From contig JBNGDO010000005.1 in the NCBI GenBank assembly GCA_049975385.1, forward strand, positions 1 to 59,296: DNA of 59,296 bases, written 5' to 3'. The stretch comes from Anaerolineae bacterium (GTDB lineage Bacteria; Chloroflexota; Anaerolineae; B4-G1; SLSP01). The notes beneath the pieces are model-generated. The model was not told the origin of the DNA, did not search any database, and worked only from the letters and a program-made list of their open reading frames with translations. Positions 53,275 through 59,208 of the stretch are shown one piece after another (position 1 is the stretch's first letter; each line of letters opens with the position of its first letter). The position numbers and the translations under genes are program-made.

Positions 53275-53333
53275 ATATCCAAAGTAAGTATGACGCACAG
53301 TACGATGAGTTGCGTGTTAAGAATGTGACTATT

Positions 53334-54047
53334 ATGGCACAGAAAATTCTCGTGGTGGAAGATGACCAAGTTTTGCGCGAGACATTGGCCTACAATTTGA
53401 ACAAAGAGGGCTATACGGTTTTGACTGCGGAAGACGGCAGCGTTGCTGTCGAAACCACCCGGCGTGAAAAACCGAATTTGATCGTGCTAGACCTTATGCT
53501 TCCGGGCATAGATGGCTTTGAGGTTTGCCGTATCGTGCGCCGGGAGAGCAATGTCCCCATCTTGATGTTGACGGCCCGCACGGATGAAGTGGATCGTGTG
53601 GTGGGATTGGAAGTCGGCGCAGACGATTATGTCACCAAACCATTCAGCATGCGCGAACTGCTGGCGCGTATCAAAGCGCATTTGCGGAGAGAGCGAATGA
53701 TCCGCGAAACGTTAACGCCGCCGGTAACGCACACGACCGATTTGAAGCCGCCCTTGTCTTTTGGTAATCTTTCTATCGATCTAAATCGGTGCGAGGTGAT
53801 GCTGGACGGCGATATACTGCCGCTCAAGCCCAAGGAATACGAGTTATTGGCTTCGTTAGCCCTGCACAAAGGCCAGGTGCTTTCCCGTCCCCAACTGATG
53901 CAAAGCGTGTGGGGGTGGGATCACAGCGTGAATAGCCGTACGATCGATGTTCACATTCGTTGGCTGCGACGCAAGATAGAGCCTGACCCGGATAACCCCA
54001 CCCGCATTGTCACTGTGCGCGGCATCGGTTACCGCTTTGAAGGATAA
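53334..54047 (+). CDS. OmpR/PhoB-family response regulator (PhoB/PhoP-like by context)
   Basis: MAQKILVVEDDQ, DLMLPGIDG, and the C-terminal VTVRGIGYRF. No adjacent histidine kinase. Confidence 0.85.
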   Translation: MAQKILVVEDDQVLRETLAYNLNKEGYTVLTAEDGSVAVETTRREKPNLIVLDLMLPGIDGFEVCRIVRRESNVPILMLTARTDEVDRVVGLEVGADDYVTKPFSMRELLARIKAHLRRERMIRETLTPPVTHTTDLKPPLSFGNLSIDLNRCEVMLDGDILPLKPKEYELLASLALHKGQVLSRPQLMQSVWGWDHSVNSRTIDVHIRWLRRKIEPDPDNPTRIVTVRGIGYRFEG

Positions 54048-54188: not shown

Positions 54189-55064
54189 ATGCGTCGCGTA
54201 AGTTTAGTTGTGTTTATTTTAGTGGCAATGTTGGTCACGGCTTGTGGCGGTAGTACACCGACTACAGCGCCGACAGCGGTTCCGGAAACTACCGAAGCCA
54301 CTGAGCCGGCTCCCGTTGCCGAAAGTGGTCAGCACATCAGTGTAGCGGGTTCGACGACGGTGCAGCCGTTGGCGGAGAAGCTGGCGGAAGAGTTCGCGGC
54401 CGCGAATCCCGATGTGAAGATCGACGTCGCGGGCGGCGGTTCGAGCGCGGGCGTCAAGGCCGCGGGCGATGGCACCGCCGACATCGGCGCAGCCTCGCGT
54501 GAAATCAAGGACGAGGAGAAAACGACCTACCCCGACATCGTGATCTTCGAGATTGCGCGGGACGGCATCGCGGTCGTCGTACACCCCGAAGTGCCCATCG
54601 ACACGCTGACCAAGGATCAGGTACGCGACATCTTCGCGGGTGTCATCACCAACTGGAGCGAGGTGGGCGGCGAGAACCAGCCAATCACCGTTATCTCCCG
54701 TGAGGAAGGCTCCGGCACACGCGGTGCGTTCGAGGAGATGGTGATGGGTGACGATGCAGCGATCACCGATCAGGCGATCTTCCAGGACTCCAACGGCAAG
54801 GTGCGCACCACCGTCGCCAGCACCCCCAACTCGATCGCCTACCTGTCCTTTGGTTACCTGGATGACTCCGTGTACGCCGTGGCGATCGACAGTGTGGAAG
54901 CCACCGAGGCCAATGCTCTGAGCGGCGCTTACCCTGTCGTCCGCCCGCTGAACATGGTCACCTTGGGCGAACCGACCGGTGTGGTCAAGACCTGGTTGGA
55001 CTGGATCATCAGCGATGCCGGGCAAGAGATTGTAACAGAGCAAGGATACCTTGCTGTTAAATAA
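54189..55064 (+). CDS. pstS: phosphate ABC transporter substrate-binding lipoprotein
   Basis: Lipobox LVTAC. Also AGSTTVQPLAE, GGGSSAGV and REEGSGTR motifs of the PstS (PBP_like_2) family. Confidence 0.9.
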   Translation: MRRVSLVVFILVAMLVTACGGSTPTTAPTAVPETTEATEPAPVAESGQHISVAGSTTVQPLAEKLAEEFAAANPDVKIDVAGGGSSAGVKAAGDGTADIGAASREIKDEEKTTYPDIVIFEIARDGIAVVVHPEVPIDTLTKDQVRDIFAGVITNWSEVGGENQPITVISREEGSGTRGAFEEMVMGDDAAITDQAIFQDSNGKVRTTVASTPNSIAYLSFGYLDDSVYAVAIDSVEATEANALSGAYPVVRPLNMVTLGEPTGVVKTWLDWIISDAGQEIVTEQGYLAVK

Positions 55065-55147: not shown

Positions 55148-56059
55148 ATGAAACTAACGCGGACCGTCGATCGAACCATTCGTTATCTGCTGTTGGGCAG
55201 CGCATTATTATCTGTCTTTATTGTGTTATTGATTGGCATATTTACCTTGATCGAAGCCTGGCCGGCGTTCCGTGAAGTCGGGTTGGTGGATTTCCTTTTC
55301 AATCCGGTATGGCACCCGCTGCCCGACGATCCCCCCAATAGTGAATTTGGTATCCTGGGGATGATTTATGCGTCGATCATCGTAACGGCAGGCGCGATCA
55401 TCTTGGGCGTGCCGTTAGGGATCGGGTGTGCCGTGTTTTTGGCCGAAATCGCTCCAGAGGCAATCCACAAACTGGTGCGTCCGGCTGTGGAACTGCTCGC
55501 CGGCATTCCCTCTGTCGTCTACGGCCTCGTGGGTATGGTCTGGTTGGTCCCCCTCATCCGCGAACTTATCCCGGTTGCCAATAATCAGGGCTTTGGTTTT
55601 CTGGCTTCGTCTATCGTGTTGGCGGTCATGATCTTGCCGACCATCATCAATATTGCCGAAGATGCGATTCGCGCGGTTCCGGAGTCTTACCGGGAGGGCG
55701 CGCTGGCTCTGGGCAGCACCCACTGGCAAACGATTGTCAATGTCATTTTCCCGGCGGCGCGTTCCGGCATCGTCGCTGCGGTGATCTTAGGGATTGGGCG
55801 CGCGTTAGGGGAAACAATGGCGATGGTGATGGTCATCGGCAACTCTACGGAGTTCCCGGTTCCGTTGACCGCCAATCCGTTGACGATCTTCCTGGCGCGC
55901 GGCCGCACGTTGACCGGCAATGTCGTGATGGGCTTGAATTATGCGGCCGGGGTCCACCGCAGCGCGCTGTTTGCCACGGGTGTGGTGTTATTTTTGATGA
56001 TTATGCTGGTCAACGGCATGGCGCGGGTGATTGTGAAGAAGTGGTCTGATAAGGGGTAA
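55148..56059 (+). CDS. pstC: phosphate ABC transporter permease
   Basis: Six-TM permease with the EAA-type loop AEDAIRAVPESYREGALALGSTHWQT. Confidence 0.85.
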   Translation: MKLTRTVDRTIRYLLLGSALLSVFIVLLIGIFTLIEAWPAFREVGLVDFLFNPVWHPLPDDPPNSEFGILGMIYASIIVTAGAIILGVPLGIGCAVFLAEIAPEAIHKLVRPAVELLAGIPSVVYGLVGMVWLVPLIRELIPVANNQGFGFLASSIVLAVMILPTIINIAEDAIRAVPESYREGALALGSTHWQTIVNVIFPAARSGIVAAVILGIGRALGETMAMVMVIGNSTEFPVPLTANPLTIFLARGRTLTGNVVMGLNYAAGVHRSALFATGVVLFLMIMLVNGMARVIVKKWSDKG

Positions 56060-56064
56060 CAAGC

Positions 56065-57843
56065 ATGGGAGTGGTAGACGCAGTATTAAACAAAACTAAA
56101 ACAGCGACTTCATCTAACTTGCAACAAAGGCACTGGATACAGAATGTGGCTTTTGGCGTGCTCTGGTTGACCGGGGGTGTGGTCATCGTCGTTTTGTTTT
56201 TTGTCATCATTTATCTGCTGTTGCAGAGTGGGAAGTTCTTCATCGGAACGGAAAACGTGCTTGAAGACATCACGCTAGAATCTTCCAACGAGGCGGTGCG
56301 CGATTTCGTCGCTGCCAACCCGGCAGCGATTGGCTATATCTCGTTTGGCTATCTGGATGGGACGACCAAAGCACTGTCGCTCAATCAGACAGCCCCGAGT
56401 GTGGCCAACATCGCCAATGACACGTATCCCCTGGTGCGCACGCTCTATATGGTTACCCACGGCGAGCCAAGCCCGGAGGTACAGGCCTGGTTGGATTTTG
56501 TGCGCAGCGCCGAAGGGCAGCAATTCCTCACCGAGGCTGGTTATATTGCTCTGACCGAATCGGCCGAGTTTCAGTCGGCGGCACACGCGATAAGTAGTGA
56601 ATTGACGCTGGCCGGTTCTACGACGGTGGAACCGTTGGCGGAGCAACTCGCGGCTGCCTTCGCCAGCCATTACCCGGATGTGACCATCACCGTGGAGGGC
56701 GGCGACTCTACCGCCGGCATCAAAGCAGCAGGCAAAGGCAGTGTGGATGTGGGGATGAGTTCCCGCGACATCAAAGAGGTAGAACTGGTTCGCTACAAAG
56801 AACTGCGTGTGTTTGACATTGGCTATGACGGCATTGCGGTCATTATCCACCCGACGCTACAAATCAGTTCACTGACCTACAATCAATTGCGTGACATTTA
56901 CAATGGTTACATTGATAATTGGGCTAAAGTCGGCGGGCCGGATGTGCCGATTGTCGTCGTAGGACGCGAGAGCGGCTCCGGTACGTCGGAAAGCTTTGAA
57001 GCGTGGGTGATGAGCAAAGAGCGGTTGATTCAGGAAGGATGGGAAACCGGCAACGTGACCATGATGGCTCAAGGCATTGGGGCCAGTTTCAAGGCCGTCT
57101 GGCGCTTTCTCACGGCCAAACCGCTGCCGGGTATGGGCGGCAAAGGTGGCATCTCGACAACCATCATCACCACGGTCTACATGGTGATTTTGACACTGCT
57201 CATCGCGACGCCATTAGGTGTTGGCGCGGCAATTTATTTGGTGGAATACGCCGGGGAAATGGGCAGCCAAAGTCGTTGGATGCGCCGGATCGTCGAAACC
57301 ATCCGCTTTGCGGTTGAAACGCTGGCCGGGGTGCCTTCGATCATCTTTGGTCTGTTTGGATTTGCGTTATTCGTCACCGTGATGCATCTCGGCCTCTCGA
57401 TGCTTTCCGGAGCGTTGGCGGGGGCGTGTTTGATCCTCCCGGTGATCATCCGCACGACGGAAGAAGCCTTGCTCACCGTGCCGCGCGCTTATCGTGAGGG
57501 CAGTCTGGCTCTCGGAGCGACGAAGTGGCAGACGAACTGGCAGGTCGTCTTGCCGACAGCTATGCCCGGCATCGTCACCGGCGTTATCCTCGGTGTAGGC
57601 CGCATCGTCAGTGAAACGGCCGTCTTCTACGTGACGTTGGGCGGCAGCATCCATTTGCCCGAGTCGGTGATGGATCAAGGGCGCACCATGGTGCTGCATT
57701 TGTATTCTTTGATGATGGACGCCAACGCCCCTGCTCCAGCGATGGGCACGGCGATGGTCTTGGTAGTGACAATCATTCTTATCAATTTAGCCATTAATTA
57801 TCTCTCTGGACGCATTGCACGCCGGTTACAAGGCAAAGCGTAA
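56065..57843 (+). CDS. pstA: phosphate ABC transporter permease PstA with an approximately 300-aa circularly permuted PstS-like domain in the first periplasmic loop
   Basis: TM1 at aa 27-55. aa 71-162 align to the C-terminal half of PstS, and aa 178-316 to the N-terminal half. From aa 360 on it is a normal PstA core with TEEALLTVPRAYREGSLALGATKWQT. Confidence 0.8.
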   Translation: MGVVDAVLNKTKTATSSNLQQRHWIQNVAFGVLWLTGGVVIVVLFFVIIYLLLQSGKFFIGTENVLEDITLESSNEAVRDFVAANPAAIGYISFGYLDGTTKALSLNQTAPSVANIANDTYPLVRTLYMVTHGEPSPEVQAWLDFVRSAEGQQFLTEAGYIALTESAEFQSAAHAISSELTLAGSTTVEPLAEQLAAAFASHYPDVTITVEGGDSTAGIKAAGKGSVDVGMSSRDIKEVELVRYKELRVFDIGYDGIAVIIHPTLQISSLTYNQLRDIYNGYIDNWAKVGGPDVPIVVVGRESGSGTSESFEAWVMSKERLIQEGWETGNVTMMAQGIGASFKAVWRFLTAKPLPGMGGKGGISTTIITTVYMVILTLLIATPLGVGAAIYLVEYAGEMGSQSRWMRRIVETIRFAVETLAGVPSIIFGLFGFALFVTVMHLGLSMLSGALAGACLILPVIIRTTEEALLTVPRAYREGSLALGATKWQTNWQVVLPTAMPGIVTGVILGVGRIVSETAVFYVTLGGSIHLPESVMDQGRTMVLHLYSLMMDANAPAPAMGTAMVLVVTIILINLAINYLSGRIARRLQGKA

Positions 57844-57904: not shown

Positions 57905-58678
57905 ATGACCGCATCTGAGGTTCGACTGGAAGTTCGAGATTATAATATGTATTATGGCGATTTTAAAGCCCTGGACGGGGTCAACGTAAAAATCCCGGCC
58001 CAACAGGTGACGGCCATCATCGGCCCTTCCGGGTGTGGCAAGAGCACATTTTTGCGCACCTTCAACCGGATGAATGATTTGATCCCTTCCGCGCGCACTG
58101 AAGGGCGGGTGTGGTTGGATGGCACCGATATTTTTAGCATGGATGCTGTAGACTTGCGGCGTCAGGTTGGTATGGTGTTTCAGCGCCCCAATCCTTTTCC
58201 CAAGTCCATTTATGACAATGTCGCTTATGGGCCACGCATGAACGGCCTGCGCGACAAAGCCAAACTGGGCGAGATTGTGGAGCGCAGCTTGCGCGACGCG
58301 GCGTTATGGGATGAGGTGAAAGACGATCTGGGCAAGTCCGGCCTCGCGCTATCTGGTGGGCAGCAGCAACGGCTGTGCATCGCGCGCGCCCTGGCGGTCG
58401 CCCCGGAGGTTATCTTGATGGACGAACCGGCCTCCGCGCTCGATCCTATCGCCACACTGCGCATCGAAGAGCTGATCCGCGAACTCAAGAAGCAGTACAC
58501 GATCGTCATCGTCACGCACAACATGCAGCAAGCTGCACGTGTTTCGGACTACACCGCCTTCTTCTACACCGACGAAAGCCGCACGGGCATCCTCGTCGAG
58601 TTTGGTAGCACGAAGAAGATTTTCACCAACCCGGACGACAAGCGGACAGAAGATTACATTACGGGAAGGTTTGGATAG
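57905..58678 (+). CDS. pstB: phosphate ABC transporter ATP-binding protein
   Basis: GPSGCGKST Walker [10 protein letters not shown] signature, ILMDEP Walker B. PstB-like length. Confidence 0.95.
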
Positions 58679-58698: not shown

Positions 58699-59208
58699 AT
58701 GAGTAAAAAACGCGTTTTGTTTCTCTGTACGGGCAACTCTGCGCGGAGTCAGATGGCTGAGGCACTGGTGAATCATTCCCTGGGCACGTTATGGGAAGCA
58801 CATTCTGCCGGAACGAAGCCGGCCGGCTACATCCATCCGATGGCGCTTCGGGCATTGGCCGAGTTGGGTATTGATGGTTCAGAGCAGTGGTCCAAATCGA
58901 CCGAGAAATTTCGTGGGATGGACTTTGATGTGGTGATTACAGTATGTGACCAGGCGGCCAAGAATTGTCCGGTATGGTTAGGCCAGGGACGCCAGGTCCA
59001 CATAGGTTTTCCCGATCCGGCAGCCGCCGAAGGTGGCGACGCGGCGAAAATGCAGATATTCCGCCAGGTACGCGACGCGCTGCGCGAGCAAGTATTAGCC
59101 TATCTGACGAATTGGCCGCAGGAATCACACCCTGAGCCATTTGTGACCAGCGAGGTTCTCATCAGTGGTGAGGATTCTGGTTCGCACTCTGCGCTCCCAC
59201 ACATATAG
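58699..59208 (+). CDS. arsC: arsenate reductase, LMW-PTPase (thioredoxin-coupled) type
   Basis: VLFLCTGNSARSQMAE (CX5R P-loop) plus downstream VCD...CP Cys residues. The C-terminal extension of about 30 aa is unassigned. Confidence 0.8.
   Translation: MSKKRVLFLCTGNSARSQMAEALVNHSLGTLWEAHSAGTKPAGYIHPMALRALAELGIDGSEQWSKSTEKFRGMDFDVVITVCDQAAKNCPVWLGQGRQVHIGFPDPAAAEGGDAAKMQIFRQVRDALREQVLAYLTNWPQESHPEPFVTSEVLISGEDSGSHSALPHI

Follow-up and report, generated by a model that had tools for sequence, protein, structure and literature searches.

The question raised by this locus is why a PstA permease should be about twice as long as usual, and what the additional residues could contribute to phosphate import. 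The protein, 592 amino acids (aa) from a single open reading frame (ORF), is encoded in a pst operon of the order PstS-PstC-PstA-PstB, which sits at the 3′ end of the window (the whole stretch analysed, which is the complete 59,296-nucleotide contig JBNGDO010000005.1 from an Anaerolineae bacterium). The comparisons indicate that a circularly permuted binding domain of the PstS type has been inserted into P1, the loop between the first two transmembrane helices (TM1 and TM2) of this PstA. The insertion site was located by aligning the protein with the ordinary 310–335-aa PstA of sister Anaerolineae. The extra ~280 residues (aa 57–340) are placed after TM1 and ahead of the conserved loop tip ‘WxFLTxxP..GG..GGISTTI’. 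This bore out both the roughly doubled length and the position, after TM1 and before the canonical PstA core, that an earlier note had read from the sequence. The TM1–TM2 loop of Escherichia coli PstA is periplasmic (PMC12976172).

BLASTP against the neighbouring PstS detected similarity far above chance level in two stretches: PstA residues 71–163 correspond to PstS 198–290 (44% identity, E 1e-22), and PstA residues 164–324 to PstS 35–194 (48% identity, E 9e-49). Since these stretches stand in swapped sequence, the domain order is permuted, with the C-terminal half preceding the N-terminal half as the earlier note had described. The Pfam and NCBIfam profiles upheld this order. PBP_like_2 of Pfam matched PstA in two stretches (E 4.9e-44, 151.5 bits against a cut-off of 27), and so did the PstS family TIGR02136 of NCBIfam (216.3 bits against a curated cut-off of 206.6), whose match is split in two because the insert is permuted. 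BPD_transp_1 was found at aa 404–588, and TIGR00974, the PstA equivalog, at aa 346–584 (232.5 bits against a curated cut-off of 193.45; profile positions 36–270 of 272). Permease and binding domain are thus encoded by one ORF, as in importers with fused binding domains, with the insertion in the TM1–TM2 loop. Like a circular permutant, the insert contains each half of the PstS domain once, in swapped order, and the halves jointly cover the whole fold according to BLASTP, the structure model and the match to 4H1X (see below). The extent noted earlier for the domain, 56275–57012 (aa 71–316), stands, but the start of its N-terminal half at aa 178 does not: the motif ‘AGSTT’ occupies A183–T187 and this half starts near aa 180. 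The parts of the protein are the following.

56065..57843, + strand: PstA, 592 aa (ORF).
56065..56232, + strand: PstA aa 1–56, cytoplasmic N-terminus and TM1; one long helix (2–60) in the structure model, aligning with TM1 of the short PstA.
56233..56271, + strand: PstA aa 57–69, N-side connector from TM1 to the inserted domain; mean majority-residue frequency 0.73, with F58 and E63 invariant.
56272..56553, + strand: PstA aa 70–163, equivalent of the PstS C-terminal part (PstS 198–290) by BLASTP; predicted local distance difference test score (pLDDT) ~88–93.
56554..56601, + strand: PstA aa 164–179, junction linker between the former C- and N-termini of the PstS fold, from sequence conservation and the ratio of nonsynonymous to synonymous substitution rates (dN/dS).
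56602..57030, + strand: PstA aa 180–322, equivalent of the PstS N-terminal part (PstS 35–194) by BLASTP, bearing all predicted phosphate ligands.
57031..57099, + strand: PstA aa 323–345, helical connector back to the loop tip; helices 318–328 and 331–350 in the model.
57100..57843, + strand: PstA aa 346–592 and stop codon, P1-loop tip (FLTxxPxPGMGGKGGI) and canonical membrane core, according to TIGR00974, BPD_transp_1 and Foldseek.

The structure was modelled as a single chain with AlphaFold2 from a 24-sequence alignment. In the insert (aa 65–340) strands alternate with helices at a pLDDT of ~85–93, and in this model the two pieces jointly form a confident binding-protein fold, which is the kind of fold that the earlier note had expected of a structure prediction. 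In a Foldseek search of the PDB the top match was 4H1X (E 7e-19, TM-score 0.72 normalised to the target, 245 columns), which aligned collinearly, while ordinary PstS structures aligned with the insert over only ~156 columns, that is, over half a domain. The OpuA structures 7ahc and 7ahd were among the weak fold matches, and the membrane part of PstA matched the E. coli PstSCAB chains 9k3x_A/B. Entry 4H1X is the crystal structure of PstS2 (SP_2084) of Streptococcus pneumoniae. In the sequence searches it was collinear with the insert across the junction of the old C-terminus and the old N-terminus, whereas all other PstS structures split into two swapped stretches. Judged from these alignments, 4H1X, too, is a naturally occurring circular permutant of PstS. 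Pst2, the transporter to which PstS2 belongs, is a functional pneumococcal importer of inorganic phosphate (PMC4913102), so that a permuted PstS fold would be compatible with function. The literature searched contained no mention of 4H1X or of a permuted PstS, although absence there is no proof. The cut point of 4H1X lies ~35 residues earlier than that of the insert, before the RxxGSGT motif. Free permuted proteins of ~290 aa resembling 4H1X were also found (P0145, P0160, P0208/Methanocaldococcus, P0227, P0231 and P0269), and such relatives occur in archaea (Methanocaldococcus and Thermoplasmatota among them) as well as bacteria.

The homologue search returned 27 further protein clusters (52–92% identity) that have the same length and Pfam combination as the window PstA. 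All are metagenome-derived and labelled Anaerolineae wherever the source is named, and the next-best matches after this family were ordinary PstA of ~325 aa. The permuted order is maintained in all of the 24 aligned family members. Eight related loci from NCBI, JGI and ENA contain, in this order, genes for a regulator, PstS, PstC, the long PstA, PstB, usually an LMWPc-family protein, and then PhoU; a free PstS was found in every operon with a readable upstream region. The survey of PstA architectures in relatives, in which ~28 Anaerolineae clusters share the insert, agrees with the earlier note, and the architecture is a genuine inherited feature of a small clade. Among the matches listed from a scan of species-representative genomes, only L008, also from Anaerolineae, has the true single-ORF arrangement. 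An apparently wide distribution (matches of ~2.5 kb in Vibrio, Bacillota, Aminicenantes and others) was rejected, as these matches were merged tblastn pieces of separate pstS and pstA genes; when they were mapped ORF by ORF, their PstA had only 42–80 residues before the core.

In one family member, P0011 (720 aa), the cytoplasmic loop is lengthened after ‘YLVEYAGEMGG’ (equivalent to ~57260–57290 of the window) by a hydrophobic stretch of ~128 aa, which may form additional membrane helices.

As the phosphate ligands of E. coli PstS we take T10, F11, S38, the D56 position, R135, S139, G140 and T141. The corresponding positions of the insert are S185/T186/T187, S215, S233/R234, R301 and S305/G306/T307, the same as in the free PstS of the operon, and all 12 of the 12 predicted ligand positions are identical or conservative in the window insert, which therefore looks, from its sequence, competent for phosphate binding. 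The positions were mapped via conserved motifs from an E. coli PstS sequence, with which 25 of the 26 residues named in PMC12976172 agree. In the family alignment, conservation is significantly higher at the ligand positions than across the insert on average (0.81–0.83 versus 0.63, P ~0.004). The full set is intact in 13 of the 24 members, seven have one change and four have two to four; in the free PstS of five loci all 12 positions are invariant.

Against three relatives, dN/dS was 0.12–0.14 for the insert, which shows purifying selection on it, compared with 0.09–0.20 for the free PstS and 0.04–0.06 for the PstA core. Within the insert the ligand-bearing half (aa 180–322) had the lowest value, 0.055–0.08, in the two closer comparisons. 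The least conserved part is the junction linker (aa 164–179), with a dN/dS of 0.45–0.54 and a majority frequency of 0.47. The TM1 region is well conserved, and its residues L19 and R22 are invariant.

The place of the insertion can be compared with the E. coli PstSCAB complex, where the N-lobe of PstS lies above PstA and the C-lobe above PstC, the P1 and P3 loops of both permeases enter the PstS cleft, the P1 residues Pro71 and Pro73 of PstA touch PstS, and K167, P169 and K175 of PstS are oriented toward PstC (PMC12976172). In the long PstA the insertion lies in the P1 loop, directly before its conserved proline-containing tip. The permutation cut point falls in the C-lobe loop equivalent to about residues 157–175 of E. 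coli PstS, which includes K167, P169 and K175. By analogy with the E. coli complex, we infer that a cut at this place would put the new chain ends side by side, on the face that the domain turns to the transporter. The N-side connector is conserved and has two invariant residues, which speaks for a fixed attachment rather than a loose tether.

A different insert was found in the same TM1–TM2 loop of two Spirochaetota proteins from metagenome-assembled genomes (L040:5707-7377 and L064:5654-7321). Their PstA are ~555 aa long, and the ~260-aa insert consists of two tandem, degenerate modules resembling the PstS C-lobe, in which the motif ‘NW..V.G.D.P’ is retained and the phosphate-ligand motifs are gone. 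Judging by these motifs, the modules cannot bind phosphate in the canonical way, and the insert looks like an independent PstS-derived insertion.

Considering the sequence, the model and the analogy with E. coli together, we give slightly better than an even chance to the reading that the insert is a built-in phosphate receptor, which serves its own channel alongside the free PstS. A second binding module beside the free PstS, as the earlier note had proposed, would fit the intact ligands, the purifying selection and the ever-present free PstS. In this mechanism the domain would capture phosphate outside the cell and, from its seat on the P1 loop, which in E. coli enters the cleft of the docked PstS, would pass it on to the PstC/PstA channel to which it belongs. 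The lipid-anchored free PstS would work beside it, probably as a competitor. The permutation would be what enables the insertion into a loop, as a cut in a surface loop of the C-lobe would yield two adjacent ends.

Several observations weigh against a built-in receptor. The membrane part of PstA has low confidence in the AlphaFold2 model, and the domain is joined to PstA via its C-lobe, whereas the C-lobe of E. coli PstS sits over PstC. Constraint on the insert is weaker than on the free receptor: across matched genome pairs it is 42–59% identical, compared with 65–75% for the free PstS and 69–86% for the PstA core. A free PstS accompanies the long PstA wherever the upstream region is readable, with invariant ligands and sometimes in duplicate. 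Finally, four of the 24 members have two to four ligand substitutions, and the equivalent of Arg135 is lost in P0021 (R301L) and P0022 (R301S). Canonical phosphate binding has probably been lost in a few distant lineages of the family, and phosphate binding would thus not be what retains the domain in every lineage.

It is possible, though not probable, that the insert is instead an accessory module that delivers no phosphate. It would then serve to dock or guide the free PstS, in the manner of the MalF P2 loop (see below), or act as a phosphate sensor or gate for the transporter or for Pho signalling, with the free PstS as the real receptor. The constant company of a free PstS with invariant ligands, duplicated in three operons, would be expected in this case, and the faster evolution of the insert and its retention in lineages with eroded ligands point the same way. 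So do the conserved connectors, which suggest a fixed mounting, and the Spirochaetota PstA, whose modules in the same loop lack the ligand motifs. However, all ligand positions are intact in the window protein and its close relatives, their conservation significantly exceeds that of the remaining insert, and the half that bears them shows the lowest dN/dS within it in the two closer comparisons. A pure scaffold would not need intact or conserved ligands, but a sensor would.

It is highly improbable that the insert is only a tolerated relic, namely a redundant and slowly decaying binding domain without a present role. Its divergence, faster than that of both the free PstS and the PstA core, and the ligand losses in P0021 and P0022 would suit such decay, but the dN/dS of 0.12–0.14, the lack of frameshifts and stop codons in ~28 clusters (down to ~42% insert identity), the confident fold model, the conserved connectors and the significant conservation of the ligands would not. 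An assembly or gene-calling artefact, such as the chimeric pstS/pstA join that the earlier note had reckoned with, is effectively refuted despite the origin of the contig from a metagenome-assembled genome and the other start (565 aa) used in the NCBI call, since an independent Logan contig from a sediment metagenome covers 56049–57802 and crosses both junctions with 95 substitutions and no gaps (~95% identity), the same single ORF occurs in independent NCBI, JGI, ENA and Logan assemblies, its frame is continuous and under purifying selection, and an insert only 44–48% identical to the neighbouring pstS does not come from a mis-join of that gene. The 565-aa protein of the NCBI annotation (P0299) is consistent with a start at V28. 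The ATG at 56065 is the likelier start on sequence grounds, because L19 and R22, which lie upstream of V28, are invariant in the family.

As to the origin of the domain, an exhaustive search with the insert alone returned three classes of top matches. The first comprised free tandem PstS-PstS proteins (N-C-N-C, ~530–550 aa) and one triple form, and the second the ~290-aa free permuted proteins like 4H1X, which are cut ~35 residues earlier. The third was one representative of the window's own family, and among the best 150 matches it alone had a PstA core as well. Tandem PstS-PstS genes were also found upstream of pstC in three operons of the family itself (L090:313-1995, L007:1-972 and L004:3-1364); the tandem PstS of L090 is complete, with two near-identical copies in 560 aa. 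The junction linker of the insert resembles the inter-copy linkers of all three. In L090 the linker reads GYLSI-LGGGEAEALSGS-ISVAGSTT, and the insert junction reads GYIAL-TESAEFQSAAHAISSE-LTLAGSTT. These tandem genes give direct support to the PstS duplication that the earlier note had supposed to underlie the permutation. The transporters of L004, L007 and L090 would, on their sequences, have three binding domains in total.

Two side observations concern the tandem genes. Among the representatives nearest the insert (P0121, 789 aa, and P0123–P0139), free PstS often have two binding domains per chain, and one has three. Loci L003 (3329-4213) and L004 (3-1364) have an identical long PstA (P0027), but L003 has a single PstS and L004 a tandem one; either PstS was duplicated, or a copy lost, very recently, or the assembly collapsed a repeat.

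A neighbour-joining tree of the un-permuted domains was calculated with 200 bootstraps; it is a distance tree with moderate support. The inserts were monophyletic in 153 of the 200 bootstraps, and their nearest relatives in the tree are the free PstS of the same lineage. Inserts and 4H1X-like forms were grouped in 0 of 200, and the descent of the insert from the 4H1X-like permuted family was ruled out by this result and by the different cut point. Because the cut points differ and the two never form one clade, the permutations of the insert and of 4H1X arose independently. Recent copying from the neighbouring pstS and gene conversion were ruled out as well, since the identity is only 44–48%.

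Two PstA proteins of 335–342 aa, P0032 and P0033, keep sequences similar to both flanks of the insert (‘QTGSYL’ and ‘WTTAEFTAEVGTLPGAVRAMWAFLT’, compared with 56225–56245 and 57040–57110 of the window) and lack the binding domain. They represent either the state before the insertion or a secondary deletion. Their flanks delimit the inserted piece to ~263 aa, which is roughly one repeat unit. The simplest history would be a single in-frame insertion into pstA, in which a one-repeat internal fragment (the end of copy 1, the linker and the start of copy 2) of the lineage's own tandem pstS-pstS was inserted once. Such a fragment would automatically be a complete permuted domain with adjacent ends. 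Here, as is rarely the case, the probable intermediates (tandem duplicates in the same operon) are still found beside the product.

A broader reading, which seems rather unlikely as a whole, joins three propositions. The clade would preserve, within one operon family, all stages of a permutation by duplication and domain insertion, namely the single PstS, the tandem PstS-PstS, the permuted one-unit insert and the flank-only PstA; the domain would be rigidly mounted via its transporter-facing surface on the P1 loop that enters the receptor cleft, with phosphate captured and handed off within the molecule or relayed from the free, often tandem, PstS; and the TM1–TM2 loop would be a recurrent site for acquiring receptor modules, as the second, independent insert of the Spirochaetota PstA suggests.

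Permease-fused binding domains are established in ABC importers, for example OpuA and GlnPQ of Lactococcus lactis (PMC3971661). As in the long PstA, binding domain and permease form one polypeptide and the domain is extracellular. Fusions of this type are typical where no periplasm retains soluble proteins; they provide a high local concentration of the receptor, and several receptors may compete for one translocator. In OpuA and GlnPQ the binding domain keeps its native residue order and is joined to an end of the permease. Unlike in these proteins, the domain of the long PstA is internal to the TM1–TM2 loop and permuted, and both of its connectors are conserved rather than flexible. To our knowledge, no Pst system with a fused binding domain is known. 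The literature searched contained no binding domain inserted into a permease loop, no permuted domain used in this manner and no Pst fusion, which is not proof of absence; this mode of joining a binding domain to an ABC importer seems not to have been described before. The influence of tethered binding domains on importer kinetics is known solely from end-to-end fusions. Here a receptor-type domain is built into a permease loop instead, and circular permutation removes the geometric difficulty that both ends of its chain have to meet.

The P2 loop of MalF contacts the maltose-binding protein; it is not a binding-protein fold, binds no substrate and lies between TM3 and TM4. Like the insert of PstA, this part of the E. 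coli maltose importer is a large folded domain in a periplasmic permease loop, placed to meet the binding protein (PMC6906923). A precedent for a naturally permuted ABC binding protein is MglB-2 of Treponema pallidum (Tp0684; PMC4990184), a glucose-binding protein of divergent topology, which differs from the insert in its binding-protein class and ligand and in being a free lipoprotein. PstS2 (4H1X) shares with the insert the permuted PstS-type fold and a linker of similar length between the old termini, and no other solved structure aligns collinearly with the insert, but PstS2 is a free lipoprotein with an earlier cut point and stands apart in the tree. This deposited crystal structure is worth revisiting as a natural permutant. 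For biosensor design the long PstA is of interest, as it offers a PstS permutation site already tried out by evolution. E. coli PstSCAB (9k3s, 9k3x and 9k3y; PMC12976172) has the PstA core, the PstC and PstB partners and the P1-loop tip in common with the window system. Its PstA, however, is ~296 aa long with a short P1 loop, and soluble PstS is the sole receptor, in contrast to the 592-aa PstA with its insert. E. coli PstS is of the longer TIGR00975 type, while the window PstS and the insert are of the shorter PBP_like_2/TIGR02136 type. The long PstA offers a natural system for learning how a fixed and a free receptor share one translocator, and reference cryo-electron microscopy structures of Pst are available for comparison.

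The other genes at the 3′ end of the window are the following.

53310..54047, + strand: PhoB/OmpR-type response regulator upstream of the pst operon (ORF; a gene with Response_reg and Trans_reg_C occupies the same position in related loci).
54189..55064, + strand: free PstS, 291 aa (ORF; TIGR02136, 265 bits; PBP_like_2, E 3.5e-47).
55148..56059, + strand: PstC permease, 303 aa, of ordinary length (TIGR02138, 306.7 bits).
57905..58678, + strand: PstB ATPase (ORF; an ABC_tran gene occupies the same position in related loci).
58699..59208, + strand: gene for an LMWPc-family protein (low-molecular-weight phosphatase or ArsC-like; ORF).

The free PstS has a signal peptide and a lipobox ending LVTAC, and is a probable lipoprotein; the solved structure nearest to it is 4gd5 (E 3e-58). 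Among ordinary PstS it is the one most closely related to the insert. The Rfam and tRNA scans of the contig gave no matches, and the scan of the pst operon for promoters and terminators performed no better than chance level. The window contig stops before phoU, while PhoU is present downstream in the related loci. The LMWPc gene is conserved in place: it separates pstB from phoU in L001, L003, L006, L007, L088 and L090, six of the seven related operons. In L001 (3392-3876) the response regulator upstream of pstS is represented by two short ORFs, one of 60 aa with the receiver domain and one of 88 aa with Trans_reg_C, which suggests a frameshift or a pseudogene. Lastly, PstA proteins of the Chloroflexi type (P0045, P0047, P0048, P0051 and P0055; 389–425 aa) carry hydrophobic N-terminal extensions of 100–180 aa before TM1, which is a different kind of PstA elaboration.

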